Below are positions 6,258 to 50,402 of a DNA stretch of 64,000 nucleotides, piece by piece (the stretch's first letter is position 1; each line of letters starts with the position of its first letter). Under the pieces are notes generated by a model. It worked only from the letters and a program-made list of their open reading frames with translations. It searched no databases and was not told the origin of the DNA. This DNA comes from Octopus vulgaris (Eukaryota): positions 79,546,001-79,610,000 of the forward strand of contig OX597830.1 in NCBI GenBank assembly GCA_951406725.2, given 5' to 3'. Position numbers and translations under genes: made by a program.

Positions 6258-6342
6258 CTTTGCAATTTTCTGATCATGTTCTACAAACTTTACCTCACCA
6301 AATGCATCACAGGGATTTGATGCCTCTTCGTCTCTAAGGTTT
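6258..6342 (-). CDS. TRPM: TRPM-like exon H (second N-terminal MHR1/2 unit)
   Basis: tctttgatag|A...AAG|gtaatt, 85 nt, phase 2 to 0. Encodes NLRDEEASNPCDAFGEVKFVEHDQKIAK (TRPM PTDAFGxIxF...K motif). No further exon was found; the gene probably continues left of the window. Confidence 0.85.
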
Positions 6343-6977
6343 CTATCAAAGACAAACAAAAGCCAAATGAACAATTGGAGTAAATTTGTGATGGGGAAGG
6401 TAGAAAAAGGAAAATGACAAAATCAAGAGATAAAGAACAACTCCAATGAAAAATACAAATATTCACAGATATAGAGATATAAATCTATACACAGAAATGG
6501 ATACTTATCTTTCAATTTAGTTGAATAAAACAATGATTAATTTTAAATAAACTTAAAAGGAAAAGCAAAGAAACATTTTGCCATCAGAAGTAAATGGAGA
6601 AAAATGAGGCTCACTGGGGAATAGTGATTCCACATCTGGGATGATGCTGCCCTTACACATACAGGTCTCATAAGACCACATCAAGAAAGAATAAAAGGTG
6701 ACTCATCTGACTGGCATGAAGTCACTTACCAATACACACTAAATTCTGACCTATAGTTGTGCTGTGTCCTCTCTTTGCCTTTTTTACCACTACACAATAG
6801 CCTCTGCTCCACAGAACTGGTTGCTCTCTTTCCACCCTATCCAGGTACCACTGATACACACATCTTGTCCATTAGACTTGATCCCCACACTAACAATATA
6901 AAAATTGAATTAAGTAGGTGTGAAAAGAAACTGCATGAGATGTCCGGTGGTGTGTCTCCTTTTATCACTCTCTCTCC

Positions 6978-7015
<38 letters not shown>

Positions 7016-7767
7016 TTGTTCCCCTCTTGCCCAAGGAAAGAAAATGTTGATCTTATTGGATTTATCCCCCTTGCTTACTATACAACTAAATTCATATGAA
7101 AGGCAATATTGGGTATGTGTATTTGTCACAGTTAACTGTATCAGATATTATTACTAATGTAGTTCCTCAATATATAAACAGTATTATCATTATTGATAGT
7201 ATATACTCATTACAAATAAACAAATCAGAAAAATCTATTAAAATTTATGTTTTAATTTCAAAAATATTTTTATTTTGAAAATTAGCATTCATTTTCTATG
7301 AAATTTGAAAATGTATGATTATAATTTTTATAGTTATGTAACATTACCTGATATTACCTGGATTAGCAAAATATATGTATTCTCAGCATTAGCCAACATA
7401 GTAATTCATAAAAACTGTTCTTAATTAATAATAATTATGTGGTGACAAGCTCCGATGAAGGCTATGCTTTGCTGAGGAAATCTAATTAGACTAAAATATG
7501 TAAACAACAAGATCATTAGCGGGTCAGAAAAAATACCATGTGGTATTAGCTTCAAGTATTTATATTGAGTTCAAGTTTTACATTGCTCAACCTTTCATTT
7601 TGTCTTTCTGGAGTTGGGGAGTCATTAAAATAAAGTACCAAAACAGGTCAGTGACTGTTGCCTGCAAATGCAAAGGTCACATCAAATTAGTATCAGACAC
7701 TGAGCGAAAGAATTTTTTTCTTAAATATTATCAATTATTTAAAATTTCTTCAAAATTTAAAAAACAA

Positions 7768-7975
7768 TGGCAGTACAGTTATGAGCTGGCAGAATTGTTA
7801 AAACATATTACTTTTGATACTTAACATTCTGAGTTCAATTTTTGATGAGGCCATCTTTGTCTTTTGTCCTCTTGGAGTTTGATAAAATAAAGTAGCAGTC
7901 AAGTGCTGGTGCTCATGGTATTAATTTAACCATTCCCCGAAAAATTGCTGGTCTTGTGCTTAAATTAGAAACTAT
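7768..7975 (+). mobile_element. SINE, diverged copy
   Basis: GAGCTGGCAGAATTGTTA...TTCTGAGTTCAATT...GATAAAATAAAGTAGCAGTC, homologous to the copies at 8580 and 9297. Confidence 0.65.
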
Positions 7976-8579
7976 TTTCCATCCAGATAAGAGTTAGTAG
8001 ATAATTTCTCTCACATCTCTATCAATAGTGTATACATGATGTGATGGCTATTATGACTTTCCCATGATGCAATTGTTTTAGATTCAACATTCAACTTCAG
8101 ATCAAGTCATTTGACAAACAAGTACAACATTAAAATTAATGGATGTATTCATCAGTGAATATTTACACATGCATACACATATGTGCATGCACACACTTTC
8201 ATGCACACACACACCTGTGTACGGAGTTGGTCAACATGCTGTTGGCGTTTACAGATTTCTCCAATATCCCAATTCATCCAATAAAAGTCTTTGTGAACAA
8301 TGATTGATTTTCTTTTTAAAGGCATCAATCCACAGCCATAATTAACCCCTAAAGGGGAATTTTCCAGAATCAACACCTAAAGGTAAATTTTCCCCGTAAT
8401 TTTTCCTTTCACTTTTTAACTTTGCTTAACTGTCCCTTTTTAAGTATTATCTCCCACTGGAATTAAAGATTATTTCTTTTTTTATCCAACTCCTTCCCTC
8501 ATATTCCATCCACCACATACAAGTGCACATACATATTCACACTGCTTGAATCTTATACTTACCCTCTCACACATATATA

Positions 8580-8790
8580 TTCCGTTTCTTTATTACCCAC
8601 AGGGGGCTACACACAGAGGAGACAAACAAGGACAGACAAACGGATTAAGTCGATTACATCGACCCCAGTGCGTAACTGGTACTTAATTTATCGACCCCGA
8701 AAGGATGAAAGGCAAAGTCAACCTCGGCGGAATTTGAACTCAGAACGTAACGGCAGATGAAATACAGCTACGCATTTCCTGCCCGGCACA
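8580..8790 (-). mobile_element. SINE (cephalopod tRNA-derived family)
   Basis: GTTCTGAGTTCAAATTCCGCCGAGGTTGACTTTGCCTTTCATCCTTTCGGGGTCGATAAATTAAGTACCAG core, shared with the copies at 9297 and 15808. Confidence 0.85.
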
Positions 8791-9296
8791 CATCTCTCCA
8801 CACACACCTGTTGCTATTTACTCTTTCCTTATTTCTTTTTCACCTGAGTTCCACATGAACATCAACCACCCATCTCCACTCTCCTCTGCTAGAAATCCCA
8901 TACCTACTAACACTTCTTGTATCCAATATCATGATGACCATCTATAATAAGACATAGACAATCCTCATCTCCTTCCCTTAATTTTCTCTTTACCTCTCCC
9001 CCCACTCTCTCTCTGTTGTCTTCCATTTCCGCATGGCTTAATATACTGACTTTGTTTTATATTTCTCATATTTTTGCTTCTTTGAATTCCTTTTGCTGAG
9101 AAACACAAAGATCTCATTTTCCCGTATATTGTATTTCATGCATTAATTGCTGCTTACCCCTCAGTATCTTCGGAAGCAGAGGAAACTGGAATCTATTGAA
9201 TTATTAAATAACAATAAAACGACATTTTGAACTTCATCCCAAACCTCCAAAAAGTATGTATTTGATGTAACCTTTGAGACTTACTCCTATTTAATA

Positions 9297-9512
9297 TTCT
9301 TTTCTACTCTAGGCACAGGGCCCAAAATTTTTGGTAGGGGGACAGTCGATTAGAACGACCCTAGTATGCAACTGGTACTTAATTAATCGACCCTGAAAGG
9401 ATGAAAGGCAAAGTCGACCTTGGTGGAATTTGAACTCAGAACGTAAAAACAGACGAAATACTGCTAAGCATTTCACCCAGCACAGCAATGTTTCTGCCAG
9501 CTCGCCGCCTTA
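9297..9512 (-). mobile_element. SINE (same family as 8580)
   Basis: Head GGCGGCGAGCTGGCAGAAAC, same core, tail GTGCCTAGAGTAGAAAAGAAT. Confidence 0.85.
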
Positions 9513-9721
9513 ACTCATATTTAATACTAAATATGAAAATATAAATATAGTGAATATAACCATAAATGTATGATGAGATGGCTATCATTCATCATCCGTG
9601 ATGAAGTCATTTTACGTTCAACACAAACTTTGGTGAAGTCTCTTGCCAGAAAGTAGAATTCCAAAATGAGTAAATCTTACTCTCTTTGTGTGTGTGTGTG
9701 TCTCTCTCTCTTTCTGTATCC

Positions 9722-9755
<34 letters not shown>

Positions 9756-10315
9756 GTATGCATGAGTATAATTTGAAGTATCATTAGCAGACACTATGGA
9801 TTTCCCACTGAGTTGATTTACAGCAATCTGATCCTTACAAAACAGAGAAAGAAATCGATATCATAAACTCTAACTTCTTTCACCAATAAAAGAAATGAGT
9901 CTGATTGTTAAAATTATTAATACTAGAGCTGTCTTAAAAGTATTAAGTATACAGAAATGATGAATTCTCATTTTGCCAACCAAATTTATTTTGAGCCTTC
10001 TGTTGACTTTTTTCCGCTATTGATAAATAACACCAGTGATCTAATGGTGTAAGAGTTTTTGAAGTGTAGCAACTTAGTATATTTGCAATATATTATGTGA
10101 AAAGACTTATGTATAAATCAACAATCAATTAATTTTAAGTTATCTTCATTGCTTGTTGTTTTGGGGTTACTGACATCCTCAGAAGTTTTTGTCAACTAGT
10201 TACTTGGATAATCTCGGTTGACCAAAGTTTTTCAACTCACTATGTAGTATAACTGAAATCCTTCTACTCATGTACTTATATTCTATCAGAATTATGAGCT
10301 TATTGCTTGAATTAC

Positions 10316-10353
10316 CTCAATTTTATGTTTTCCGGAATCCATTTCTTTACATC
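10316..10353 (-). CDS. TRPM: TRPM-like exon G (start of a second TRPM N-terminus)
   Basis: Strong T-rich acceptor ttttattttcag|GAT and donor AG|gtaatt, 38 nt, phase 0 to 2. Encodes DVKKWIPENIKLR, matching the WIPENIK motif I recall near the N-terminus of vertebrate TRPM2. Confidence 0.8.
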
Positions 10354-11894
10354 CTGAAAATAAAAAAAAATTTTAATTTGAATGTTTGAAGGAATGATGG
10401 AGTTCCAACATCTGACATTAATTCTATAACAGAGAATCTCAAAATTTACAACAAATTATAGAGAAGACATATAAACAGTACAAGACACGAGTAAAGCCAA
10501 GATTATCAGGTGGAGATAATCTCATCACTATTAATACAGATACACATGATTTCAGTTTGTCTTATTTACAATTTTTTGCATGGTACACTGGTTTTGACAT
10601 TGGACTGTAATGAATGAAATTTTCTGGATAGAAACAGTGCCACATCATGATAACAGAATTTTGCTTAACCAGTTTAATCATTTGTGTAAAACTTATAAGC
10701 CATGTCAGACTTACAAAGATATAATTATAAACTATTGAAAAGGTTGCAGGACGCAGTGAAAATTTTAGAAAAATAAAGAAGGAAATGAGTGGAAATTTTA
10801 CCGGTGAGTTTGTCAGATTATAAGGCACTAAAAGAGAATGACTCTCCCCAGACACAAGAGAATAACTCTAATATATCTTTAAAAAATGACTAAAATGAAT
10901 GGGAAAATGAATACAAAGAACAGTTAAATAGTTCTGTTTATTTGGTATTTTGTAGTCCCCCCCGCCCCCTTGAAAGCATATTGCACTTCCAACCTGGGTA
11001 ACTTTTTAACTTGAATTCACTAAACATTCTACATTTCCAAGTGCTAAGTTTTGGAAATGGAACAAATATTCCGTAAGGTTTCTGATTATTCATCTCTACA
11101 AGAACATAATTTTCATTCCATACGATACGTTCATGATAGAATAGAACTTAAAGGAATATGGCACTGTCAAAGCCAACAAAGTCATCGAATGTTAACCTTG
11201 CTCTGTCTTTGATGCATTTTATACGTTGACAGATCTGACTGAGATAATGGAGGTATACAGAGAAGAGTAATATTAATGATGAGTCACTGGAAGAAATGTT
11301 CAACAGTGACATGAGAATGCAGGGTTTAACAAATAAAATTATGGAAGATCAACGGAATTGTGATATACAATAGAATAGACCTATGCAACAATGTGTCAGC
11401 ACAGAAGGACAGATGTCTAACTGATAATGATGATATTTAATATTTATCATATTCATTGTTTTATATGAAGTACGTGACAACAATTTTATAGGAAGAGAAA
11501 TACAAATTTATGATAACTTCTTAATTCCCTTCAAGCAGAAATTGAAACAAGGAATTGAAACTGGGAATTGAAACCAGGACAGTGTCTCAGTTCACTGGAT
11601 GTTTATCTTCCAATGTAAGAGGCTAAGGAATGTCCAACTATAACTACATTCTTCAAAGACTTTCTTCCTTTGTTTATGAAGTCAGTACCATCCAACTTTC
11701 ATATTATATTCTGATTATTTTCCTCTTTTTCCCCCTCTAAATAGAAACCATGCTAAAGTAGACATTGGAGCTCAACGCAGACCTCCAGATGTTTGGATCC
11801 TATTGGATTGTCCAACCTACGTTAGCAAGGAAGATGGCTGTTAAATGATGAAACATAATTGTGTGTATGTGTGTACATATATATACATATATAT

Positions 11895-12049
11895 ATTCTA
11901 GCAAAAACTGTCCGATGAACGGCAACGGGAAACTCAGAGTAACAGGTTATGTTGAATTTTCTGCTGCTTTAAATAAAGCATATTACTCTACCACTGGTTT
12001 TTGAGTACTCTTTTTTCCACCTTGTTTCACATTTATGTGTTTACTCCGG

Positions 12050-12050
<1 letters not shown>
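11895..12050 (+). mobile_element. Solo Penelope-type pseudo-LTR with minimal hammerhead-like motif
   Basis: ctgt-CCGATGA-acggcaacgg-GAAA-ctcagagt-A-acag at 11908-11945, followed by AATAAA. Flanked by TA microsatellite. Confidence 0.55.
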
Positions 12051-12085
<35 letters not shown>

Positions 12086-12419
12086 TAGGGAGAGACAGAC
12101 AGACAGACAGAGATAAATGCACACGGATGTATACAGCAGCATCTTACACATACTGACAAATAAGTATGCACACACACATACACAAGGTGCATAAATTTCC
12201 CACTTGCTATTCCTGCCTAAAGTGATCCTTCGACTATCTCCAGTAAAAAAATTTTACAAACAAGCAATAATTATTTTACAAGCATTCAAATTATTAAAAC
12301 GATATTTAAAATACATTTTTATTTAAAACATTTTACTCTTCATCCTCTCAAGAAGAAAAAAAATTTTAAATTTATTAATTGTTCACAACATGAAGTGATA
12401 AAAAAAGATATTATCTTAC

Positions 12420-12514
12420 TTCCCGGGGAGCTTCTCCTTTAAATATTAGACGTTTTAGAACATCAGGTTTGTTCCATTCCAATCCGAGCCTCATATTTTC
12501 TATGTTTTTCTTTG
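12420..12514 (-). CDS. TRPM: TRPM-like channel exon F (start of MHR3)
   Basis: ttacag|CA...GAA|gtaag, 95 nt, phase 1 to 0. Encodes AKKNIENMRLGLEWNKPDVLKRLIFKGEAPRE (resembles TRPM QLxLALxWNRxDIA..IF). Confidence 0.88.
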
Positions 12515-16582: not shown

Positions 16583-16767
16583 CCTTGAATACAGCTTTGA
16601 ACATTGTTAGATCAAATTCTTTCTCTGAATCTTTATCATAAACAGTCAGCAAGTTTGGTCGTTTTAGGGACATCAACACATAGTCAACCAAGTTATCTAT
16701 CCCTTTTCCTTTCAATTCCTTTTCAAATTCTTTAATAATTTGCTCTCTGATATCAGTTTTCAGATTC
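16583..16767 (-). CDS. TRPM: TRPM-like channel exon E
   Basis: ctaag|G...AAGG|gtaag, 185 nt, phase 2 to 1, open. Encodes RNLKTDIREQIIKEFEKELKGKGIDNLVDYVLMSLKRPNLLTVYDKDSEKEFDLTMFKAVFK (resembles TRPM LLTVF...DLAIL.ALLK). Confidence 0.88.
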
Positions 16768-18074: not shown

Positions 18075-18163
18075 CTGTCATTTATGTCTTCATCTTCTTC
18101 ATTTGAATTTTCGAGTTTTGTTTGGTAAGCATCTGCCAAAATATCTGCTGCTCGACCAGTATC
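18075..18163 (-). CDS. TRPM: TRPM-like channel exon D
   Basis: ttatcag|GAT...AG|gtttg, 89 nt, phase 0 to 2. Encodes DTGRAADILADAYQTKLENSNEEDEDIND (TRPM GSGRAADILA motif). Confidence 0.92.
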
Positions 18164-26398: not shown

Positions 26399-26508
26399 CT
26401 TTACTATTACAACTGGGATGTTGCGTGATATTGAATCATGCACTGACTTCAGAGTTCCAGGTCCACCTCCAACCATTACTGCAACAGCTGGAATCTTGAC
26501 TTCTGTCT
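26399..26508 (-). CDS. TRPM: TRPM-like channel exon C
   Basis: ttttag|AG...AAG|gtcag, 110 nt, phase 1 to 0. Encodes ETEVKIPAVAVMVGGGPGTLKSVHDSISRNIPVVIVK (TRPM IPxV..GGPGT..PVV motif). Confidence 0.93.
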
Positions 26509-26984
26509 CTAAAATTACAGCAGAAAATATAAATTGATTAAGAAAAAATATATATCTAATTAAATTATGAAATATGCCTGATTAAGGTAAAACATATCTA
26601 GTTAGTGTATAAAACATATACATGATTAAATTTTTAAATATACCTGGATAAAGTAGAAGGTATAACCAGATCTTGGTGTAATGCATACCTGGTTAAAGTA
26701 CAAAACATACCTGAATGAGGTAAAAATATATAAATGATTTAAGTAAAATGTATATCTTTTTAATTATATCTTAATAATAAAATATAACTGCTTCTAAAAT
26801 ACATCTCACATTAAGTATAACCGCATTTAGGTCTAAATTGTATAAAATATGACTTGACTAGAATATAAAGTTTAGTATATGTTCAGGTTTTAGAAAACAT
26901 AAATCAATGCCATGATGATGAAGATGATGATGATGATGATGATGATGATCATCATCATCATCATCATCGTCATCGTCTATACCA

Positions 26985-27310
26985 ACATTATTTAATGTCC
27001 TTCTTCCATTGTGGTACGGGTTGGATGGTTTGATAAGAACTAGTAAGCCAGAAGACCATACCAGACTCTACCATTTGCTTTGGCATGGTTTCTACAGCCA
27101 GATGTTCTTCTTAACACCAACCACTTTACAGAGTTTACTGGGTGCTTTTTATGTGGCACCAGCACTAGAGAGGTGACCAAGTAACTTGCAAAACAAGAAA
27201 CTGCAACTGAGTGGGGGGAGTAGTAGTGAGGGAGGTAACTTTGTGCCAGCTGATGAGAAGTTAGAGTATGAATAAGGGGACAGAAACAGATATGTTGCAG
27301 TAGAAGAGAT
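26985..27310 (-). mobile_element. RTE 3' tail fragment
   Basis: TTTGGCATGGTTTCTACAGC...AACCACTTTACAGAG shared with the tails at 18335 and 22880. Adjacent to a (GAT)n(CAT)n tract. Confidence 0.7.
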
Positions 27311-27756
27311 ACATGGCTACTCCAGGTGGAACCAGAGGGAGAGAGAAGAGGGTGAAGAAGATGTATTGGGGCATTTCATCAAATTACAGGGAGGTGTATA
27401 TATAGGAATTGGTACAGAGGATTGGATAGGGTGAGTGGGTAGGTAAGTTTATGAAAGGTGAGTAGGAGATGGAGGGGAGAAAAATGCAGTGAATGTGAGT
27501 GGAGGGAGGGGGATAGGAAGATATGTTTTGGGGGAGAGATTCAGAGACATGGATTGTGTGCAGGGGTATAGAAATAAACAACATGCCGTTAGGACATCGA
27601 TTTTACATAGATAGACAGATCTCCTGAAGCCCAAATGATCAATTAACCCAGATCTTTGTCATATCCTCTGTGAAACTCACAATCTGAAGGTCATTTTACA
27701 TACTTTTTCCCACATATTTATAGGTCTTCCTCCTCCTCAAGTTCCATCCACCTTTA

Positions 27757-27818
<62 letters not shown>

Positions 27819-27862
27819 GTGTGTAATGTGTGTGTATATATATATATATATATAAATATATA

Positions 27863-27896
<34 letters not shown>

Positions 27897-27899
<3 letters not shown>

Positions 27900-28533
27900 G
27901 CACGTAAAATACGCCAATCTGACCGTACGACAGGCACCCATGCCAACCACCTTGCTTGCGAAGACATGTTGGGGCAAGCGAAATCGAAATCGAATTGAAC
28001 CAGCCAGGATCCCTGGTCTGGTGGTACGTAAAAAGCACTATCCGACTCGTGGCCGATGCCAGCGCCGCCTCCACTGGCTTCCGTGCCGGTGGCACGTAAA
28101 ATACACCAATCTGACCGTACGACAGGCACCCATGCCAACCCCTTTGCTTGCGAAGACATGTTGGGGCAAGGCAAAGGAAATCGAATTGAACCAGCCAGGA
28201 TCCCTGGTCTGGTGGTACGTAAAAGGCACTATCCGACTCGTGGCCGATGCCAGCGCCGCCTCGTCTGGCTTCCGTGCCGGTGGCACATAAAATACACCAA
28301 TCCGACCGTGGCCGTTGCCAGCCTCGCCTGGCACCTGTGCAGGTGGCACGTAAAAGGCACCCACTACACTCACGGAGTGGTTGGCGTTAGGAAGGGCATC
28401 CAGCTGTAGAAACACTACCAGATAAGACTGGAGCCTGGTGCAGCCTTCTGGCTTCCCAGATCCCCGATCAAACCGTCCAACCCATGCTAGCATGGAGAAC
28501 GGACGTTAAACGATGATGATGATGATGATGATA
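27897..28533 (+). mobile_element. RTE 3' UTR fragment with ~193-bp tandem duplication, in (TA)n
   Basis: 27897-28088 is repeated at 28089-28278. Ends CCAACCCATGCTAGCATGGAGAACGGACGTTAAAC(GAT)n. Confidence 0.85.
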
Positions 28534-28556
28534 ATGTGGATATATATATATATATA

Positions 28557-28732
<176 letters not shown>

Positions 28733-28824
28733 TATATAATGTGTGTATATATATATATCAGTCCAACCGATGCTAGCATGGAAAGCGGACGTTAAATGAT
28801 GATGATGATGATGATATATATATA

Positions 28825-28898
<74 letters not shown>

Positions 28899-28996
28899 AT
28901 ATATGATTGATTGATTGATTGATTGATTCTAGTTTCAGCTTATGAGCTGTGGCCATGCTGGGGCACCGCCATTTGGTGTTGCTACTTGGTTTTACT

Positions 28997-31900
28997 TCAC
29001 GAAAGCTTTTTAGCAACAGCCATTTGGTGCATGAGAGAGTTCGATGCAGCTGCCCTCATCTGCACCTCCTGCCGTGAAGTTGGTTCATCTGGGACACCTG
29101 ACAGGAAGAGATTCAGTTTCATTTTAAAGACATCTGCATCCACCCCATGCAGGTCTCTCAGGTTCTTCGGGAGGATATTGAAGAGCTGTGGGCCTCGGAA
29201 GCCCAGGCTATCACAGAATCTTGTCCTACATCTTGATGGTAAGTCTGGAGTCCTAGGCACCACGCAGTGGCGCCCATATCTGGCATTTGCGTAACTCTCG
29301 ATGCCAAAGTTTAGGACACGTCCCTCCAGGATCTTCCAGATGTATATTATGGCATATCTTTCCCGCCTACGCTCCAGGGAATATAGTTTTAATCTCTTGA
29401 GTCTTTTCCAGTAGCTTACATTCTGCATAGAGGCTATCTTCTTCGTGTAGCTACGTTGGATCGCCTCGAGCTCTGTGATCAACTTGACACTTGATGGTGA
29501 CCATAACTGAGAGCAGTAGTCAAAGTGGCTTAGGACAAGTGTCCTCCAGAGGACCATCATGGTTTCTTGTTCTCTTGTTCTAAAGGTTCTGAGGATCCAT
29601 CCGGCCAGGCGTCTACATTTCATTGCCAATTTAGCAACATGTACACGAAAGGTCGCGTCATCACTCATGTAAATACCTAGGTCACGCACTGATTGTGCCT
29701 CTGGGATTGCTATTCCTCCGGGTCCAGTGTATTCATTGGGTATTGCATTTAGTTTTGCATGCTGATAGTGTAAAGCTTGAAACTTTTCAGCATTGAACTG
29801 CATGCTATTCTTTTCAGCCCACTTGTATATTTTGTCCAGCTCACATTGCAGGTGTTTAGTGTCCTCGGGGTTCTGTATTGCCTGTGAAACTTTTGTATCA
29901 TCTGCATAACTTGTGATCGTGGCTCTCTGCGTGGCTGAGGGCATGTCTGAGAGGGCCATTATGAACAGTAGTGGTCCCAGAACAGTGCCCTGCGGAACAC
30001 CGCTCACTATTTGCGTGTTAATGGAAGTGGCCCCATTGGCTACTACCACCTGACTTCTATCTTTCAGAAAGTCATGAAGCCATTCTCCCAGTTTTCCAAC
30101 TATGTTGAGATCACACAGTATGTGACATATCATTCCATGATCGACTTTATCAAAGGCCTTTGCAAAGTCGAGATATATCACTTCCACATTTGAGTGGTTG
30201 AGCAGCCGTTTCAGCACCCAGTCATAGTGTTGTAGGAGCTGAGTTAAACAGCTTCTCCCTGGTCGGAAACCATGTTGGGTGTCGGGAAGCAAGTCATTCT
30301 CTTCAAGGAAGGTGATCAGCTTCCTTCTGACTATTCGTTCCATGAACTTGCTGATGTGTGAGGTCAGAGAGATAGGTCTGTAGTTCTTGGCCTCTGCTCT
30401 GCTACCTCCTTTATGAATGGGGCATATTTTACCTTCCTTCAGTTTTCTTGGAAGTTTGCCAGCTGCAAGGAAGCTCTGAAAGAGGAACTGCAGTGGTCTT
30501 GCTAGGACTCTCTTACATGCTTTTAGGAGGATTGCCGGGAATCCATCGGGGCCAGTAGCTGAGTCTGTTTTCATTTCATCTATAGCCTTGATTACATCGT
30601 TCTCCTTTATATCGATGTAATCTATCGTCGCCGCCTCTGATTCTATATCTGCAGTGGTAAAAAAGTCAGTTGGATTGGTGATTTGGAGATGCCCAAGGGG
30701 TGGAGTGAAAACACTCTTGAATTGCTCATTCAGTATTTCACTTACCCTCATTGGTTTTCCTGTAAGTGTGCCATCCTTTTCAAGGAGTGGGCCTATTCTA
30801 CAGTGCACCGTAGCTGTTTCTTTGGCATACCTGTAGAAAGCTCTGGGGTTAGATTTTATGTTGTCTATAGCCCAGGCTTCTTTGTCTGCTCTTTCTTTTT
30901 CATGGGAGAGTTGCAGACATTTTTCGATTTGCAACAGTTTTATTTTTAGGCGGGACTTTTCACTGCTTTCAATCTGTTTGTTTAGGCGATTTGAATTTTT
31001 TGTACGCCGTCTCATTAAAATTTTCCTCTCTCTGGGGATTTTGTTCTTGTGTACAGTGGCCTTTCTCTCTGGGACACATTTGTAGCATATGGCTTGCATT
31101 ACAGACATGAATTGTTGAAGTTTTACGTCGATGTCTGGCAAGGAGAGACATTTAGGCCAGTTTTGTTTGAGGATCTCTTTCTCAATTTGTTTCCAGTTTG
31201 CCTTATGGTAGTTCAAGCTGGAAAGATTCTGAGGGTTTCTTGTAGGCTGCATGTCCGTGCTCTCTTTTGGCTCGTACATGGTCAGCTCTATCATGTTGTG
31301 ATCCGAGAGTAGTGTCGGTGTCACTTTCACATTATGGATGAGATCCATGTCATTTGTGAAGCAGAGATCCAGTGTGTTACCTGTCCTGGTTGGTTGGAGT
31401 ATTACCTGCTCCATGTACAGGGTGTTGATGAGGTTCAGGAGGGACCTCGCCTGTCCTCGTTCACATCTTGTCATTCCTGGGAGAGAAAGGCCCTCGGGCC
31501 ATCTGACATTGGGCAGATTGAAGTCTCTCATAAGAAGTACACTTATGTGTTGTTCTAATGTGGTTAGAACTTCTTCTATTTTTATAAGGCAGTCTTCAAA
31601 CTTGCCCACATGGCTTGGGGCATCTAGAGGGCGATATGTAGCACACACAACTACATCAAGTTGCCTAATATGAACAATTAGTGTGTCACACACCGAGTTT
31701 GAGTATGACAAGAGGACCTGGGGTGTGAGGTCCTCACGGATGTACATAGCAACACCTTCATGACTCCTTTCTCTTCTGTCGGTCCGTAGTACAGCATACT
31801 GTGGTATGTGTAACTCCGCATCTGCTATGTCCGGTTTCAGGTGCGTTTCCGTAAGTGCTATGCATAAGGCTTGATTGCATGCAACAAAGTCTCTCAGGAA

Positions 31901-32101
31901 CGGGATCTTTGTCCTGTTACTGAGTGTTTGCAGCCCTCTGATGTTCAGTAGGAGCATCGAGGTGAGGTGTACGTTGTTGCCGGCGGTGTCCATCCTGGGT
32001 CTGTTTGCTGTGGTGGTCTTGTATATAGTGGTTAATCCCACCTGCGGGCTTGGGTTTGATGAAGCCAGGTCAGCTGCTGTACAATCTTTTGTGCCATGCA
32101 C
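28997..32101 (-). CDS. LINE ORF2: AP-endonuclease + reverse transcriptase
   Basis: LLNIRGL, LTETHL, DFNLP, LDLCF, SDH (APE); [43 protein letters not shown] (RT). The true start codon is uncertain. Confidence 0.95.
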   Translation of the reverse strand: MHGTKDCTAADLASSNPSPQVGLTTIYKTTTANRPRMDTAGNNVHLTSMLLLNIRGLQTLSNRTKIPFLRDFVACNQALCIALTETHLKPDIADAELHIPQYAVLRTDRRERSHEGVAMYIREDLTPQVLLSYSNSVCDTLIVHIRQLDVVVCATYRPLDAPSHVGKFEDCLIKIEEVLTTLEQHISVLLMRDFNLPNVRWPEGLSLPGMTRCERGQARSLLNLINTLYMEQVILQPTRTGNTLDLCFTNDMDLIHNVKVTPTLLSDHNMIELTMYEPKESTDMQPTRNPQNLSSLNYHKANWKQIEKEILKQNWPKCLSLPDIDVKLQQFMSVMQAICYKCVPERKATVHKNKIPRERKILMRRRTKNSNRLNKQIESSEKSRLKIKLLQIEKCLQLSHEKERADKEAWAIDNIKSNPRAFYRYAKETATVHCRIGPLLEKDGTLTGKPMRVSEILNEQFKSVFTPPLGHLQITNPTDFFTTADIESEAATIDYIDIKENDVIKAIDEMKTDSATGPDGFPAILLKACKRVLARPLQFLFQSFLAAGKLPRKLKEGKICPIHKGGSRAEAKNYRPISLTSHISKFMERIVRRKLITFLEENDLLPDTQHGFRPGRSCLTQLLQHYDWVLKRLLNHSNVEVIYLDFAKAFDKVDHGMICHILCDLNIVGKLGEWLHDFLKDRSQVVVANGATSINTQIVSGVPQGTVLGPLLFIMALSDMPSATQRATITSYADDTKVSQAIQNPEDTKHLQCELDKIYKWAEKNSMQFNAEKFQALHYQHAKLNAIPNEYTGPGGIAIPEAQSVRDLGIYMSDDATFRVHVAKLAMKCRRLAGWILRTFRTREQETMMVLWRTLVLSHFDYCSQLWSPSSVKLITELEAIQRSYTKKIASMQNVSYWKRLKRLKLYSLERRRERYAIIYIWKILEGRVLNFGIESYANARYGRHCVVPRTPDLPSRCRTRFCDSLGFRGPQLFNILPKNLRDLHGVDADVFKMKLNLFLSGVPDEPTSRQEVQMRAAASNSLMHQMAVAKKLS

Positions 32102-32849
32102 AAAAAAGATTGTTGCTCAGCAGCTGCCCTTTCGACAACATCATGTTGGCGGTTTGTGGCACGCACAACATCTGCGTACCTCCGCTTTGGGGCAGGTGGT
32201 GCGTGGTCCATCCCTTTTCCTTGTGTTGATGGTTTGTCCATCTGCCTCGTGTCTCTGTGGCAGGGTCCCCGATGTGCAAAGCGGCAGCCTGCACCTTCCT
32301 TTCCATGCCAGCAGGAACCTCTCAGGTAGAACCTACACACCCGTGTGCGCTGTTTGCTTCCATCTTTTGCGGTTCCACTTCTATTCCTGGTTGTTTCACC
32401 CTTTGGTCCTGCTTGAGCTTTTCCTTTAGCTGTTCCAGTCCTTCTTTTAGTTCTTCTTCCTCCCTCTACCTCTTCACCGGGTTCTCCGTCTCCATGGCCC
32501 TTGCTGCCGGTTGGAGAACTCGCACCTGGGTTCACTTCCCGGGCAGGTTTCTCACTCAAAACCTCCTCCCGGGCGTCCACCAGGTGGGGTGACTTCTTTC
32601 ATCGTCTCCATTCTTGCCATCTTTGTCCCGCTCGTTCTCAAAGATGGCATCAAGTGCACCAATGTGCGACCGTATAAGCGCATATGAGCGCACGAATTCC
32701 CGTCTCTTTCGCTCCATCTGAGCCGCTGTCCTCTTGTAGCCGTTGTTCTTCAACGCAGCCGCAATCACCTCGCTAGGGCTATCGCCGTCGGCGCATTTCC
32801 AGGCTCGTTCGAATAACTCTAGTTCGTCAGGTATCCAGGCTCTGGACAT
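32032..32849 (-). CDS. LINE ORF1 (Myb/SANT-like N-terminus + CCCH zinc finger), split by one frameshift
   Basis: 32556-32849 encodes MSRAWIPDELELF...IAAALKNNGYKRTAAQMERK. 32032-32580 contains CRFYLRGSCWHGKEGAGCRFAH. The frames switch near the G4 run at 32586-32589. Confidence 0.75.
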
Positions 32850-32910
32850 GCTGGATAATCTGTCTATTTGTTTATCTATCTAAATATGTTCGAGAGAAGA
32901 CAAGAAGATA

Positions 32911-33828
32911 TTAAGGCTAATTAGAAGATAGAGTATTTGAAAATATATTAACAATATTAAAGTTTGTGGGTAAAAACGTTATTTAATCTTGAGGCTTATT
33001 AGAAGATAGAGTATCTGAAAATATAGTAACAATATTAAAGTGTGGGTAAAAGCGTTATTTAATCTGAAGGCTAATTAGAAGATAGAGTATTTGAAAATAT
33101 ATTAACAATATTAAAGTGTGGATAAAAACGTTATTTAATCTTAAGGCTAATTAGAAGATAGAGTATCTGAAAATATATCAATAATATTAAAGTGTGGGTA
33201 AAAACGTTATTTAATCTTAAGGCTAATTAGAAGATAGAGTATCTGAAAATATATCAATAATATTAAAGTGTGGGTAAAAACGTTATTTAATCTTAGAAGA
33301 TAGAGTATCTGAAAAAAATATTAACAATATTAGAGTGTGGGTAAAAACGTTATTTAATCTTAAGGCTAATTAGCAGATAGAGTATCTGAAAAATATATCA
33401 ATAATATTAAAGTGTGGGTAAAAACGTTATTTAATCTTAGAAGATAGAGTATCTGAAAAAATATTAACAATATTAGTGTGTGGGTAAAAACGTTATTTAA
33501 TCTTAAGGCTAATTAGAGGATAGAGTATCTGAAAATATATTAACAATATTAGAGTGTGGGTAAAAACGTTATTTAATCTTAGAAGATAGAGTATCTGAAA
33601 AAATATTAACAATATTAGAGTGTGGGTAAAAACGTTATTTAATCTTAAGGCTAATTAGAGGATAGAGTATCTGAAAATATATTAACAATATTAGAGTGTG
33701 GGTAAAAACGTTATTTAATCTTAAGGCTAATTAGAGGATAGAGTATCTGAAAATATATTAACAATATTAGAGTGTGGGTAAAAAACGTTATTTAATCTTA
33801 AGGCTAATTAGAGGATAGAGTATCTGAA
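32911..33828. repeat. Minisatellite, ~12 units of ~76/66 bp, inside the LINE 5' UTR
   Basis: Unit ttaaggctaattagaagatagagtatctgaaaatatattaacaatattaaagtgtgggtaaaaacgttatttaatc. Some units lack the first 10 bp. Confidence 0.95.
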
Positions 33829-34268
33829 AGAGGAGAGATGTAAACAGAAATGGCGTTCGTAACTTTAAAAGGAGATGTAGGCTTAAGTTAGGGGGATAAA
33901 ATAGGATAATAAACAAAATATGAAATAGAAGATGAATGTGATACTTAATCCAACGATGTGGTCTGGATTTTTTGAGTTTTACGGAATTATTTTCCAGGAG
34001 ATGTTTCTTTTTCCTTCTTGTAGGAGATAAGTTACTTCAGTGAGTTTTTCCACCATGTGCGTTTTCGGCGAAATGAAAAATTATTACTGTATTTGGCTTC
34101 AGGCAAAATATATTACGTTTTTGATTAATATATTTGTAACCGAAGTGTTGTAGTGGACTTTATGAGTTGAATTTGGACTTTCAGTAGATTATTTCACCGA
34201 TTTATGCACACTTTCTGCCTTTTTTAAACAGAGCAAAGGCGATACACGACTTTCCCTGCCGGAACCGG

Positions 34269-39368
<5,100 letters not shown>

Positions 39369-39398
39369 ATATATATATATACATATATATATACATAC

Positions 39399-39489
<91 letters not shown>

Positions 39490-39491
<2 letters not shown>

Positions 39492-40841
39492 TTTTATTTT
39501 GTTTTTTTTATTTTATCTAGTTTCAGCTCATAAGCTGTGGATATGCTGGGGCACCGCCATTTGATGTTGCTACATGATTTTACTTCACGAATGCTTTTTA
39601 GCAACTGCCATTTGGTGCATGAGAGAGTTCGATGCAGCTGCACCTCCTGCCGTGAAGTTGGTTCATCTGGGACACCTGATAGGAAGAGATCCAGTCCTAC
39701 TTTAAAGACGTCTGCATCCACCCCATGCAGGTCCCTCAGGTTCTTCGGGAGGATATTGAAGAGCTGAGGGCCTCTGAAACCCAGGCTATCACAGTATCTT
39801 GTCCTACATCTTGATGGCATATTTAGAGTCCTTGGCACCACGTTGTGGTGCCCAGTTCTGGCATTTGTGTAACTCTCAATGCCAAAGTTTGGGACAAGTC
39901 CTTCCAGGATCTTCCAGATGTATATTATGGCATATCTTTCTCGCCTACGCTCCAAGGAATAGAGTTTTAATCTCTTGAGTCTTTCCCAGTAGCTTATATT
40001 CTGCACAGAGGCTATCTTCTTCGTGTAGCTACGTTGGATCGCCTCAAGTTCTGTGATCAACTTGACACTGGATGGTGACCATAGCTGAGGGCAATAGTCA
40101 AAGTGGCTTAGGACAAGTGTCCTCCAGAGGACCATCATGGATTCTTGCTCTCTTGTTTTAAAGGTTCTAAGAATCCATCCGGCCAGCCGTCTACATTTCA
40201 TTGCCAATTTAGCAACATGTACACGAAAGGTTGCGTCATCACTCATGTAAATACCCAGGTCACGCACTGATTATGCCTCTGGGATTGCAATCCCTCCAGG
40301 TCCAGTGTATTCATTGGGTATTGCATTTAGTTTTGCATGTTGATAGCATAAAGCTTGAAACTTTTCGGCATTGAACTGCATGCTATTCTTTTCAGCCCAC
40401 TTGTATATTTTGTCCAGCTCACATTGCAGGTGATTAGTATCTTCAGGGTTCTGTATTGCCTGTGAAACTTTTGTATCATCTGCATAACTTGTGATCGTGG
40501 CTCTCTGCGTGGCTGAGGGCATGTCTGAGAGGGCCATTATGAACAGTAGTGGTCCCAAAACAGTGCCCTGCGGAAAACCGCACACTATTTGCGTGTTAAT
40601 GGAAGTGGCCCCATTGGCTACTACCACCTGACTTCTATTCTTCAGAAAGTCATGAAGCCATTCTCCCAATTTTCGTACTGTGCCAAGATCACGCAGTTTG
40701 TGACATATCATTCCATGATCGACTTTATCAAAGGCCTTTGCAAAGTCGAGATATATCACTTCCACATATGAGTGGTTGAGCAGTCGTTTCAGCGCCCAGT
40801 AATAGTGTTGTAGGAGCTGAGTTAAGCAGCTTCTTCCTGGT
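39490..40841 (-). mobile_element. 5'-truncated LINE copy
   Basis: Runs from [10 protein letters not shown] through YADDT to the 3' UTR. Stop at 40271-40273. A-rich tail. Confidence 0.93.
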
Positions 40842-40855
40842 ATATATGTATATGT

Positions 40856-40887
<32 letters not shown>

Positions 40888-40973
40888 GTAGGTCCTGGGT
40901 TGATTCGGGGTTAACCACAGTAAGTAAGGTACTCAATACATAGCAGAGTAAAATTAATTTATTATATAGAAGG

Positions 40974-41024
40974 AGCTTCTACAGGACTAGTACTGTTTCA
41001 TTCAAGAGAAATCTTCAGGAAGCT
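40974..41024 (-). ncRNA. Type I hammerhead ribozyme motif
   Basis: Exact reverse complement of 44677-44727. Confidence 0.7.
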
Positions 41025-41429
41025 ATTTAACAAGAATTGTATTAGCATTTATACATTTAGGCAGGTTTAAAGGAGTGGTGGTGGGGGACTTTTTGGGGGT
41101 AGGCATAGCGCAAAATATCATACTTGGGGGAGTGGTCAAGGAGTCAGTGGTAAGTTAGATGAAAGAATAGATAAATAAAAAAATAAAAAAATAAAATAAA
41201 AAAATAAAAAAATAAAAAAATAAAAAATAAAAAAATAAAATAAAAAAATAAAAAAATAAAAAATATAAAAAATATATATAAAAAAATATATATATAAAAT
41301 ATATATATAAAAAAATATATATATAAAAAAAGGGGGGATAGAGTTATAGGTAAATAAGGAGATTCTCACTTATACCTATACACACATGTATACGTATCTA
41401 CACACACATACATACATACACATATATAT

Positions 41430-41478
<49 letters not shown>

Positions 41479-42361
41479 CATATGTACACACATACATACA
41501 TATCTACATACACACATACATACACCCGCCCACATATACAAATTTATACACATGCACATGCCTATACCTGTCTACACATACACGCACGTATATATGCATA
41601 CACTCACTCCCATGCATGCACGCATACACACATGTATATATATATATATATATACCCACGACCACACATACATATATACACATAAAAATATATATTCATA
41701 CGCACATACACACATCATGCACACACAACACACCTAGTTCCCTATATACACATATTTACACCTATATATACATACACCCACATACACCTATGTACACATA
41801 TATATATATGAACATATACACGCATACATATATATACATGTGTGCACATACATACATACACAGATATATACATACACATACACATACACATGTGTACCTA
41901 TACATACCTACACATACACACATACATACATACAAATATACATATACATATATATATATACAATCCAATACAGGCCCATTCCCTAATTTTAATTTTATTA
42001 TCTTCATTTATTACTTTTGTTATCTTTGATCGCTAGGGCTAAGAATCCTGGCAATGGCTGCATGTCCATTTGTCTGTCTACTAGAAGGCAAGTACTCATT
42101 CCCGCACGCACACTCATTAGCACGTACATTCACCCATTCGTACACTCATACACATACACGTACGCACGCGTTATATTCATACATACAAACAAACATCTAC
42201 ATACGTTCACGTATATACACATACGTACTCGTACCTACAGATTCGTGTCTACACTTTAGGAGGCTAGTCTATACATATACACCAATAAATATACATATAT
42301 ATATATATACCCGCATATACATACACACACACACATATATACTCCTACATACAGATACATA

Positions 42362-42415
<54 letters not shown>

Positions 42416-43298
42416 CATACACATACACACATACATATACACACACATACATACACATATATATACATACACAAACATATATACACACATATATATATAC
42501 ATACACACATACACACATACATACGTATACATACATACATACATCCATACATCCATACTTACATGCATTTATACGCATACACGCACATACACATATACAT
42601 GCGTACCCATACACGTGCACACACGCACGCGCATCCATATATATACACACACACACATATATATACACGTGTGCAAGCATACATACATACTCATACGCGC
42701 ACACATACTTACAAATACATATATGCACACACTTACACACATATATATACATACACATATACATGCATACATACATATATGCATACATACACACACGCAC
42801 TCATATAATGAGTGCGTGTGTGTATGTATGCATATATGTATGTATGCATGTATATGTGTATGTATATATATGTGTGTAAGTGTGTGCATATATGTATTTG
42901 TAAGTATGTGTGCGCGTATGAGTATGTATGTATGCTTGCACACGTGTATATATATGTGTGTGTGTATATATATGGATGCGCGTGCGTGTGTGCACGTGTA
43001 TGGGTACGCATGTATATGCGTATGTGCGTGTATGCGTATACGTGTATGTATGTATGTGTGTGCGTAGATTTGTATATGTATGTGTGAGTGTGTATATATA
43101 TATATATATATACATATATATAGATGGGTGTGTGTATGCGTATAAATGCATGTAAGTATGGATGTATGGATGTATGTATGTATGTATAAGTATGTATGTG
43201 TGTATGTGTGTATGTATATATATATGTGTGTATATATGTTTGTGTATGTATATATATGTGTATGTATGTGTGTGTATATGTATGTGTGTATGTGTATG

Positions 43299-43350
<52 letters not shown>

Positions 43351-44230
43351 TATGTATCTGTATGTAGGAGTATATATGTGTGTGTGTGTATGTATATGCG
43401 GGTATATATATATATATGTATATTTATTGGTGTATATGTATAGACTAGCCTCCTAAAGTGTAGACACGAATCTGTAGGTACGAGTACGTATGTGTATATA
43501 CGTGAACGTATGTAGATGTTTGTTTGTATGTATGAATATAACGCGTGCGTACGTGTATGTGTATGAGTGTACGAATGGGTGAATGTACGTGCTAATGAGT
43601 GTGCGTGCGGGAATGAGTACTTGCCTTCTAGTAGACAGACAAATGGACATGCAGCCATTGCCAGGATTCTTAGCCCTAGCGATCAAAGATAACAAATGTA
43701 ATAAATGAAGATAATAAAATTAAAATTAGGGAATGGGCCTGTATTGGATTGTATATATATATATGTATATGTATATTTGTATGTATGTATGTGTGTATGT
43801 GTAGGTATGTATAGGTACACATGTGTATGTGTATGTGTATGTATATATCTGTGTATGTATGTATGTGCACACATGTATATATATGTATGCGTGTATATGT
43901 TCATATATATATATGTGTACATAGGTGTATGTGGGTGTATGTATATATAGGTGTAAATATGTGTATATAGGGAACTAGGTGTGTTGTGTGTGCATGAGTG
44001 TATGTGCGTATGAATATATATTTTTATGTGTATATATGTATGTGTGGTCGTGGGTATATATATATATATATATACATGTGTGTATGCGTGCATGCATGGG
44101 AGTGAGTGTATGCATATATACGTGCGTGTATGTGTAGACAGGTATAGGCATGTGCATGTGTATAAATTTGTATATGTGGGCGGGTGTATGTATGTGTGTA
44201 TGTAGATATGTATGTATGTGTGTACATATG

Positions 44231-44281
<51 letters not shown>

Positions 44282-44676
44282 ATATATATGTGTATGTATG
44301 TATGTGTGTGTAGATACGTATACATGTGTGTATAGGTATAAGTGAGAATCTCCTTATTTACCTATAACTCTATCCCCCCTTTTTTTATATATATATTTTT
44401 TATATATATATTTTTTTATATATATTTTTTATATTTTTTTATTTTTTTATTTTTTTTTTTATTTTTTTATTTTTTATTTTTTATTTTTTTATTTTTTTAT
44501 TTTATTTTATTTTTTTATTTTTTTATTTACCTATTCTTTCATCTAACTTACCACTGACTCCTTGACCACTCCCCCAAGTATGATATTTTGCGCTATGCCT
44601 ACCCCCAAAAAGTCCCCCACCACCACTCCTTTAAACCTGCCTAAATGTATAAATGCTAATACAATTCTTGTTAAAT

Positions 44677-44727
44677 AGCTTCCTGAAGATTTCTCTTGAA
44701 TGAAACAGTACTAGTCCTGTAGAAGCT
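44677..44727 (+). ncRNA. Type I hammerhead ribozyme motif
   Basis: AGCTTC-CTGAAGA-T TTC TCTT GAA T-GAAA-CAG TACTAGTC CTG-TA-GAAGCT. Stem I is 6 bp, the CUGANGA/GAAA/UH core is intact, stem III is ACAG/CTGT, and cleavage is predicted after GUA at 44721. Stem II is closed by a U-U mismatch. Confidence 0.7.
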
Positions 44728-44738
44728 CCTTCTATATA

Positions 44739-44878
<140 letters not shown>

Positions 44879-45017
44879 TAATAAAATAAATATAAGAGAG
44901 TGGTCACTATATGGCTCACTCCAGCACTAGTTAATCCAAAAGGTTTCGACCACTAGGCCACTTGGTGTTGAATAGATATACTATTAAATTAGTATCTACT
45001 TCTCTCACCCTTATTAA

Positions 45018-45096
<79 letters not shown>

Positions 45097-47870: not shown

Positions 47871-47930
47871 TACTAATATACTATATATACTATACTAATA
47901 TACTATATATATATATATATATATATGTAC

Positions 47931-48032
<102 letters not shown>

Positions 48033-48077
48033 GTATGTATATATATATATATGTATGTATATATATATATATGTATG

Positions 48078-48218
<141 letters not shown>

Positions 48219-48256
48219 GTATACATATATATATATATATGTATATATATATATGT

Positions 48257-48302
<46 letters not shown>

Positions 48303-48402
48303 ATATGTATACATATATATATATATGTATACATATATATTTATACATATATATATATATATGTATACATATATATATATATGTATACATATATATATAT
48401 AT

Positions 48403-48718
48403 CGCACTCTCATCTCATAACAACAATACGGCACAATTATTTCACCTCAATTGGCCCCGCTCTCTTTAACATTACACCAAAACACATTAAAATAGAAACT
48501 GACCCTATAGGGTTCAAGAAGTCTTTGGACAGATTACTTCAAGAAATCCCGGATAAACCCCCTACACCCGGATATGTCTCTGTAAACAATAACTCACTAC
48601 TTGAGTGGGCCATAGTGCCCAAATTCTGACTTGAAAGACTTCACCAGGTGGTGCTATTAAGTTAGACATGGCCTGGGCCAATAATGGCCGAAACCTATCA
48701 AAGTATCAAAGTATCAAA

Positions 48719-48720
<2 letters not shown>
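48403..48720 (+). mobile_element. Short 3' fragment of the 45097 LINE family
   Basis: Inverted, near-identical copy of ~45097-45415 with the same tail. Confidence 0.92.
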
Positions 48721-48768
<48 letters not shown>

Positions 48769-48775
48769 GTATACA

Positions 48776-48818
<43 letters not shown>

Positions 48819-48925
48819 GTATACATATATATATATATGTATACATATATATATATATGCATACATATATATATATATATGTATACATATATATATATAT
48901 ATGCATACATATATATATGCATACA

Positions 48926-50402
48926 TGTATCATCTGCATAACTTGTGATCATGGCTCTCTGCGTGGCTGAGGGCATGTCTGAGAGGGCCATTATGAACAG
49001 TAGTGGTCCCAGAACAGTGCCCTGCGGAACACCGCTCACTATTTGCGTGTTAATGGAAGTGGCCCCATTGGCTGCTACCACCTGACTTCTATCTTTCAGA
49101 AAGTCATGAAGCCATTCTCCTAGTTTTCCAACTATGTTGAGATCACGCAGTTTGTGACATATCATTCCATGATCGACTTTATCAAAGGCCTTTGCAAAGT
49201 CGAGATATATCACTTCCACATTTGAGTGGTTGAGCAGCCGATTCAGCACCCAGTCATAGTGTTGTAGGAGCTGAGTTAAACAGCTTCTTTCTGGTCGGAA
49301 ACCATGTTGGGTGTCGGGCAGCAAGTCATTCTCTTCAAGGAAGGTGATCAGCTTCCTTCTGCCTATTCGTTCCATGACCTTGCTGATGTGCGAAGTCAGA
49401 GAGATAGGTCTGTAGTTCTTGGCTTCCGCTCTGCTACCTCCTTTATGAATGGGGCATATTTTACCTTCCTTCAGTTTTCTTGGAAGTTTGCCAGCTGCAA
49501 GGAAGCTCTGAAAGAGGAACTGCAGTGGTCTTGCTAGGACTCTCTTACATGCTTTTAGGAGGATTGCCGGAAATCCATCGGGGCCAGTAGCTGAGTCTGT
49601 TTTCATTTCATCTATAGCCTTGATTACATCGTCTTCCTTTATATCGATGTAATCTATCGTCGCCGCCTCTGATTTTATATCTGCAGTGGTAAAAAAGTCA
49701 GTTGGATTGGTGATTTGGAGATGCCCAAGGGGTGGAGTGAAAACACTCTTGAATTGCTCATTCAGTATTTCACTTACCCTCATTGGTTTTCCTGTAAGTG
49801 TGCCATCCTTTTCAAGGAGTGGCCCTATTCTACAGTGCACCGTAGCTGTTTCTTTGGCATACCTGTAGAAAGCTCTGGGGTTAGATTTTATGTTGTCTAT
49901 AGCCCAGGCTTCTTTGTCTGCTCTTTCTTTTTCATGGGAGAGTTGCAGAGATTTTTCGATTTGCAACAGTTTTATTTTTAGGCGGGACTTTTCACTGCTT
50001 TCAATCTGTTTGTTTAGGCGATTTGAAAATTTTGTACGCCGTCTCATGAAAATTTTCCTCTCTCTGTGGATTTTGTTCTTGTGTACAGTGGCCTTTCTCT
50101 CTGGGACACATTTGTAGCATATGGCTTGCATTACAGACATGAATTGTTGAAGTTTCACGTCGATGTCTGGCGAGGAGAGACATTTAGGCCAGTTTTGTTT
50201 GAGGATCTCTTTCTCAATTTGTTTCCAGTTTGCCTTATGGTAGTTCAAGCTGGAAAGATTCTGAGGGTTTCTTGTAGGCTGCATGTCCGTGCTCTCTTTT
50301 GGCCCGTACATGGTCAGCTCTATCATGTTGTGATCCGAGAGTAGTGTCGGTGTCACTTTCACATTATGGATGAGATCCATGTCATTTGTGAAGCAGAGAT
50401 CC
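48926..50402 (-). mobile_element. Internal LINE fragment truncated at both ends
   Basis: Runs from DLCFTND to YADDT, then directly into TA-rich repeat. No 3' UTR. Confidence 0.92.

Follow-up and report, generated by a model that had tools for sequence, protein, structure and literature searches.

Tandem MHR1/2 modules in a probable TRPM-beta channel gene of octopus

Introduction

Can one TRPM channel carry several MHR1/2 (SLOG) modules in a row? The question is raised by a 64,000-nucleotide (nt) stretch of the 2.8-Gb Octopus vulgaris genome (assembly GCA_951406725.2, contig OX597830.1, here called C17, positions 79546001-79610000; hereafter the window), in which a chain of TRPM exons on the minus strand reaches the first helices of MHR3 and then starts again. 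An initial annotation of this DNA offered two explanations, either one protein with tandem MHR/SLOG modules or a pore-less unit directly upstream of a second TRPM gene. We read the locus as the middle of an octopus TRPM-beta gene with a tandem of MHR1/2 modules (four in this copy, likely five in the full form), likely a single Ca2+-gated pore, and extra modules that would serve as a sensor array, and we give this reading as a whole a probability of about 0.6. That the modules stand in tandem is close to certain, and the gene represents a real, lineage-specific new architecture within a known channel family. A single melastatin set of MHR1/2, MHR3 and MHR4 has been described for all TRPM members (PMC13143021, section 27), from which a gene with four to five MHR1/2 modules departs.

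A spliced junction between two modules

The exon at 12514-12420 of the window (minus strand) terminates in LGLEWNKPDVLKRLIFKGEAPRE and has a phase-0 GTAAG donor. A GT-AG intron of 2,066 nt (12419-10354) separates it from a 38-nt exon at 10353-10316 (DVKKWIPENIKL-R), which ends in phase 2 and is spliced to the exon at 6342-6258 (NLRDEEASNPCDAFGEVKF..AK). These phases are those given in the initial annotation, whose statement that the gap holds no MHR4 or pore exon was also borne out when the 2.07 kb were read. Its proposed check for transcript reads joining 12420 to 10353 led to the joint 10352/12419 (2066 nt skipped, CT..AC on the plus strand) in Logan contigs of three of four sequencing runs (X3, X10 and X2, from three studies). 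The flanking joints 6342/10316 and 16766/18074 are present in contigs of the same runs, and in X3 all three occur at equal depth as one 620-nt contig; in X1 the intron is covered without an exon joint. Because the RNA status of all four runs is a guess and the contigs differ from the window by a few letters at several places, so that they may derive from sister copies or alleles, they show the 12420/10353 splice for the family and not for this very copy.

Seven public protein models fit the junction pattern. CAI9735658.1, the model of this locus, crosses the junction, as do models of O. sinensis and O. bimaculoides. The exon-intron-exon unit around it is present in seven copies on C17 at 95-100% identity, and therefore the arrangement is not a local misjoin. 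The chain restart is thus real and read through as one protein in public models of three Octopus species, and a split into two genes at 12420/10353 is ruled out by the splice.

The whole gene and its product

To place the window, 464 kilobases (kb) of C17 around it were read, which contain no N letters, and exons were mapped with homologous proteins. The gene has 73 coding exons over 444 kb, the window being its middle. AG is found at 73/73 acceptors and GT at 72/72 donors, and the phases chain through all exons except at four single-base deletions. The exons of the window and the parts beyond it are as follows, with window coordinates unless C17 is given.

C17:79692950-79611806, minus strand: exons 1-11, outside the window
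60410..60571, minus strand: exon 12 of 73, SLOG core of module 1 (AWIITEGLHTG...), with two 1-nt deletions near 60518 and 60490
56092..56266, minus strand: exon 13, of module-1 type (GSWPA...LDPNHSHFILVDDG), the last before the module 1/module 2 fusion point
26509..56091, minus strand: 29.6-kb intron with the module 1/module 2 fusion point and many LINE-like open reading frames
26399..26508, minus strand: exon 14, of module-2 type (TEVKIPAVAVMVGGGPGT)
18075..18163, minus strand: exon 15 (DTGRAAD, phosphate-binding Arg kept)
16583..16767, minus strand: exon 16, helical end of MHR2
12420..12514, minus strand: exon 17, first MHR3 helices, module end with phase-0 donor
10354..12419, minus strand: 2,066-nt GT-AG intron joining two modules
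10316..10353, minus strand: exon 18, 38-nt module-start micro-exon (DVKKWIPENIKLR), phase 0 to 2
6258..6342, minus strand: exon 19, start of module 3 (PCDAFGEVKF)
C17:79545555-79248495, minus strand: exons 20-73, outside the window

Long open frames also lie on the minus strand within introns, at 29000-32116 (about 1,040 codons open), 45609-47807, 48701-50410 and 19409-20446; their endonuclease and reverse-transcriptase-like motifs presumably mark them as long interspersed nuclear elements (LINEs). A 28-nt candidate exon at C17:79304335 was dropped, as it competes with a homologous exon for the same phase.

Counted from the first ATG found, the predicted product has 2,469 amino acids (aa), and an extra 5' exon is possible. 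It comprises four MHR1/2 (SLOG) modules, a 150-aa acidic linker encoded by micro-exons before the last of them, MHR3/4, S1-S6 and the TRP helix. When the spliced protein was searched with a profile of 10 single-module TRPMs, four N-terminal matches fell at aa 135-500, 519-897, 893-1261 and 1414-1823, the fourth running on into MHR3, and MHR4 and the membrane part came after them. The initial annotation, which had proposed such a count, was right about the tandem and wrong about the number it gave, two modules, since this copy has four and the full form likely five. The repeat unit is MHR1/2 plus the first helices of MHR3. MHR3 and MHR4 (exons 56-61; profile match aa 1414-1996) are complete only after the last module, and exon 59 among them has one of the 1-nt deletions. 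The S1-S6 pore and TRP helix exons are present and in phase with the chain, and the protein stops after a coiled coil at aa 2469, with no NUDT9-H domain. The N-terminal extension (C17:79692950-79641212) and the linker (C17:79406813-79369214) are both made of duplicated micro-exon pairs, and the linker donors match those of the module-start exon.

Structure modelling, another check proposed at the outset, was done with AlphaFold on the two-module sister protein P0006 (47-row alignment). It folds as two consecutive alpha/beta MHR1/2 units with the same element order (mean predicted local distance difference test score 73.7), preceded by 112 disordered residues, and all PDB matches listed by Foldseek are TRPM structures.

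Module number and the TRPM cluster

Among 20 database matches scanned with the Pfam family LSDAT_euk, nine have two to four stretches, and all nine come from Octopus. In O. bimaculoides, XP_052830016 carries modules 1-4, and the adjacent models XP_052830018-21, which begin inside module 4, carry module 5 and the start of the membrane part. Together with the sister copies, these models suggest that the full form likely has five modules and an estimated length of about 2,830 aa. The first module of the window copy, which had been taken for an ordinary TRPM module, is instead a chimera of the N-half of module 1 and the C-half of module 2. This fusion is found in 4/7 copies on C17, and the remaining three have separate modules 1 and 2. 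O. sinensis models contain module 3/4 and module 1/5 chimeras. One of these, O. sinensis P0023 (XP_036366250-54), is a one-module channel whose module is a module 1/module 5 chimera, and it may be a deletion derivative or a product of long-range exon skipping.

In a tree of 28 rows, modules of different species cluster according to their position, and the 17 module rows all belong to a single clade (support 100/100) nested among single-module octopus paralogs, with the P0013 and P0015 types as neighbours (99/99); P0039, P0040, P0046 and the first module of P0045 are left out of this tree, as the splitting pattern missed them. The intron at 10354..12419 is 75-79% like the introns preceding the start exons of modules 1 and 4 and a linker micro-exon. 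Because introns of different modules are still this alike, unequal crossing-over between them is the likely cause of the shifts in module number.

The TRPM cluster on C17 lies at 42.9-44.6, 56.8-57.0, 67.4-69.1 and 79.2-79.7 Mb and holds 28 SLOG exon matches and 8 pore exons. Its 67-69 Mb part contains scaffold gaps and contigs in mixed orientation. At 67.41 Mb an exon copy has codons identical to window 56033-56266, which indicates either a very recent duplication or that some copies are uncollapsed haplotypes. Fragmentation, partial misorientation and possible haplotype redundancy in this cluster are what would be expected if the tandem modules were misjoined paralogs. That explanation is nevertheless practically out of the question, as the module order is the same in three species, the 12420/10353 junction is spliced, the modules are only 48-66% identical to one another, and the copy studied here is gap-free.

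The probable link between the module chain and the pore

After module 4, ten micro-exons alternating between phase 0-to-2 and phase 2-to-0 encode the 150-aa linker, which has 37 acidic residues. It is here that a division of the gene into two products has to be considered: one a soluble chain of three to four SLOG modules that lacks a pore and ends in EPEIDQLFTKM, the other a channel with a single module, encoded just downstream. The former would take up ligands as a buffer, present them, or attach to TRPM tetramers, and it could coexist with the long protein as an isoform made by intronic polyadenylation.

Several observations favour this division and weigh against a single transcript. The O. 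sinensis model XP_036366207.1 comes to its end with EPEIDQLFTKM, the AT-rich intron beyond that stop contains AATAAA-like words, and 8/9 multi-module models have no pore. The genome holds seven chain starts and five matching pore exons. In one linker copy the exon that follows EPEIDQLFTK (the FTNIT exon) contains an additional A. No read or contig was seen to cross the linker or to span module 1 to the pore, and the connection between module 4 and the pore is drawn from splice phases and the public models of two species. The whole chain was not found in one database protein, where a search at 2,096-5,000 aa gave one unrelated match among 5,536 candidates, itself weak evidence. A search for shorter database proteins across the linker was uninformative: of 492 candidates one matched, an O. 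sinensis model that ends within the linker.

The terminal Met and stop of EPEIDQLFTKM, however, are read from an AT|GTAATG donor, which is in phase 2 and homologous to the donors of eight other phase 0-to-2 micro-exons. The frame runs on through the FTNIT exon, and both exons occur together in 5/5 linker copies. Five of the pore-less models (P0001, P0003, P0006, P0007 and P0021) end in the same manner, in intron sequence just past a donor. Where a sister copy looks devoid of a pore or of a module chain, its sequence breaks off at a 100-N scaffold gap (seven such gaps were found); the exception is the copy at 68.9-69.05 Mb, in which neither a next exon nor a gap was seen within 30 kb past module 4. 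The linker join is crossed by O. bimaculoides XP_052830018-20 and O. vulgaris CAI9735657.1, models whose underlying evidence is not visible. Further, from the join at aa 1333 up to aa 1447, a position within module 5, there is no Met, so translation of a separate channel half could begin only in mid-module 5, unless its start codon came from an unseen exon. The pore-less chain, first suggested by the Pfam result, was lowered after the splice-phase analysis and is now considered improbable, while one transcript from module 1 to the pore is probable. In the databases the gene exists only as pieces.

Single-base deletions in this copy

A different doubt concerns the window's own copy, which could be a recent pseudogene in an otherwise real family. 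It has four 1-nt deletions (window 60518 and 60490; C17:79522476 and 79311639), which count against an intact gene as frameshifts. The pair in exon 12 (60571-60410) is absent from 6/6 sister copies, and the junction contigs differ from the window at several places. Against this, each deletion shortens a G or C run, one sister copy has a private 1-nt loss in the same exon, and neither nonsense codons nor broken splice sites were found across the 73 exons. Single-base losses in short runs are typical of unpolished long-read consensus in repeats. The deletions are probably assembly errors, by a little over two to one against pseudogenisation, and a dead copy at this locus is accordingly held to be doubtful.

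Ligand pocket, Ca2+ site and selectivity filter

In TRPM2, the MHR1/2 cleft holds ADP-ribose via Y295, R302, R358 and the beta5-alpha3 loop (PMC6759353), and in Nematostella TRPM2 (nvTRPM2) the changes Y264A and R329A raise the half-maximal effective concentration more than 1,000-fold (PMC7201885). The octopus modules were compared with the nvTRPM2 N-site residues T143, T179, Y264, R271, T307 and R329. At these six positions module 5, the sole module then followed by a full MHR3/4, has I, L, S, R, T and Q, as against I, L, F, R, T and R in the module 1/2 chimera. The equivalents of Y264 and R329 are Ser/Gln in module 5, Ser/Lys in module 3 and Pro/Gly in module 4. An aromatic residue with Arg is kept only in the chimera in this copy, and likewise in module 1 of O. 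bimaculoides. The loop TGGAKN is replaced by IGGRED, IGERQD or IGERKD. The suggestion that the modules are TRPM2-like ADP-ribose sensors therefore holds in part, as most of them are without the key contacts.

The Ca2+-site motifs EEIHQ and WNIID (S2-S3) and INEF of the TRP helix are kept, as judged by alignment to human TRPM2 via a close homologue; the roles of the S2-S3 residues (E, Q, N, D) and of the TRP-helix Glu follow PMC5976436. The lower gate is also kept. Because the pocket pair of module 5 is lost, the Ca2+ motifs are kept and NUDT9-H is absent, the prediction is a pore that depends on Ca2+ and that ADP-ribose does not open through the usual site. The selectivity filter is a point against this reading: it has the sequence YAE (L047:5076-5250, C17:79271250-79271076), with Gly replaced by Ala, where solved invertebrate and protist TRPM2 have YGE, and the Ala could impair conduction. 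YAE also occurs in O. sinensis P0023 and in two sister copies (44.47 and 67.58 Mb), while single-module paralogs have YGE.

Rate of change and the possible role of the extra modules

The modules change quickly. The ratio of non-synonymous to synonymous change (dN/dS) is 0.79-1.08 in six module pairs over about 330 codons (NG86, a rough estimate), and on three shared exons it is 0.66-1.19 for modules versus 0.37-0.59 for single-module paralogs. Orthologous modules are 77-81% identical between species, versus 93% for two single-module paralogs. Pairwise differences among six recent copies of one exon are mostly non-synonymous, in pairs that are not independent and with small counts. Diversifying selection on a sensor array is our preferred reading, but values near 1 fit relaxed selection equally well.

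Under relaxed selection, the gene would encode one long channel whose extra modules are tolerated passengers or a plain scaffold, by-products of duplication. A dN/dS of about 1, the lost pocket residues and a module number that varies via the chimeras 1/2, 3/4 and 1/5 agree with this. Yet no module of this copy contains a stop codon, although our arithmetic, in which 5% of single changes create a stop, puts the expectation for the observed divergence at about 8 in each module. Moreover, all five modules are kept in both O. bimaculoides and O. vulgaris. The absence of stops indicates that the reading frame is needed, though a passenger upstream of a needed pore would show the same. On balance we consider passenger modules unlikely.

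The sensor-array reading would work as follows. The last module would occupy the normal TRPM position, and the pore would open with cytosolic Ca2+ and not through the standard proximal ADP-ribose site. The distal modules would hang on the 150-aa acidic, probably flexible linker as tethered binding units, and they may bind nucleotide-like or other cytosolic ligands or partners and thereby tune the channel. Suspended on a long acidic linker, they could not be rigid gating arms. This tuning role for the distal modules is put forward tentatively, at slightly less than even odds. The bacterial SLOG sensor of the Thoeris system, ThsA, in which the SLOG fold is a nucleotide-signal receptor coupled to an effector, may serve purely as an analogy. 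A bolder version, more speculative still, would be a giant octopus TRPM with about 2,500-2,850 aa in each subunit and as many as 20 SLOG pockets in a tetramer. Its N-terminal array would be resized by unequal crossing-over and positively selected, and such channels would form a receptor-like family, hidden by cut-up annotation, in which changing nucleotide, danger or pathogen signals of the cytosol are coupled to one Ca2+-gated pore.

If true, four or five diverged clamps in a natural channel would show that MHR1/2 can be stacked as a modular sensor. The modules are also ready constructs for asking what MHR1/2 clefts bind in TRPMs that are not gated by ADP-ribose.

Relatives and previous descriptions

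With TRPM-beta or TRPM2-type channels (human, zebrafish and Nematostella TRPM2) the octopus gene shares MHR1/2, MHR3, MHR4, S1-S6, the TRP helix, the coiled coil and the Ca2+-site motifs EExxQ and WNxxD, and its best PDB sequence match is human TRPM2. It differs from them in its four to five MHR1/2 modules, its acidic micro-exon linker, the absence of NUDT9-H and of the N-terminal Cys-rich segment, the loss of the proximal ADP-ribose Tyr and Arg, and a YAE filter in place of YGE or FGQ. The O. bimaculoides channel half XP_052830018 has been placed as an ordinary TRPM-beta (PMC13143021, Table S1). Our module tree, which contains no alpha/beta reference set, puts the modules among octopus paralogs. 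Nearest in it are the single-module TRPM-beta paralogs at C17 42.9, 43.0 and 44.3 Mb (types P0013, P0015 and P0018), which have the same exon types but one module and slower change, and keep GPGT, GSGR and YGE.

Beyond octopus, 12 proteins with several stretches occur among the best 150 of 2,172 matches. Nine of these were scanned with Pfam and five of them read, and only XP_072049890-92 (P0045/P0177), which we take to be from the brittle star Amphiura filiformis, is a clean tandem, in which two SLOG modules stand side by side before a single MHR3/4 and pore. Its tandem is probably an independent duplication, since the tree, which includes one of the two modules, sets this module on a long branch apart from the octopus clade. 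The other candidates were set aside: P0035 is scrambled and carries an 'unverified' flag, P0036 and P0037 have the look of gene fusions, P0128 lacks a pore and is an almost identical duplicate, and in the remaining four the domains are split or partial.

No description of a tandem MHR1/2 architecture was found in the literature on TRPM, SLOG and octopus, searched mostly without subscription papers. The accessible parts of a 2026 survey (PMC13402157), which counts one beta-TRPM each for O. vulgaris and O. sinensis, do not mention SLOG, MHR or tandem, and LOC106871768 is not in its list. Likewise, the parts seen of PMC12919962, PMC12980990 and a choanoflagellate preprint contain nothing on tandem MHR1/2, and two bioRxiv preprints, as far as accessible, treat octopus as TRP-poor. 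With its 28 SLOG exon matches and 8 pore exons, C17 by itself corrects the picture of cephalopods as TRPM-poor. As far as found, the repeats are undescribed, although they are already on record: NCBI and UniRef contain partial multi-SLOG proteins, labelled uncharacterised or 'TRPM SLOG domain-containing'.

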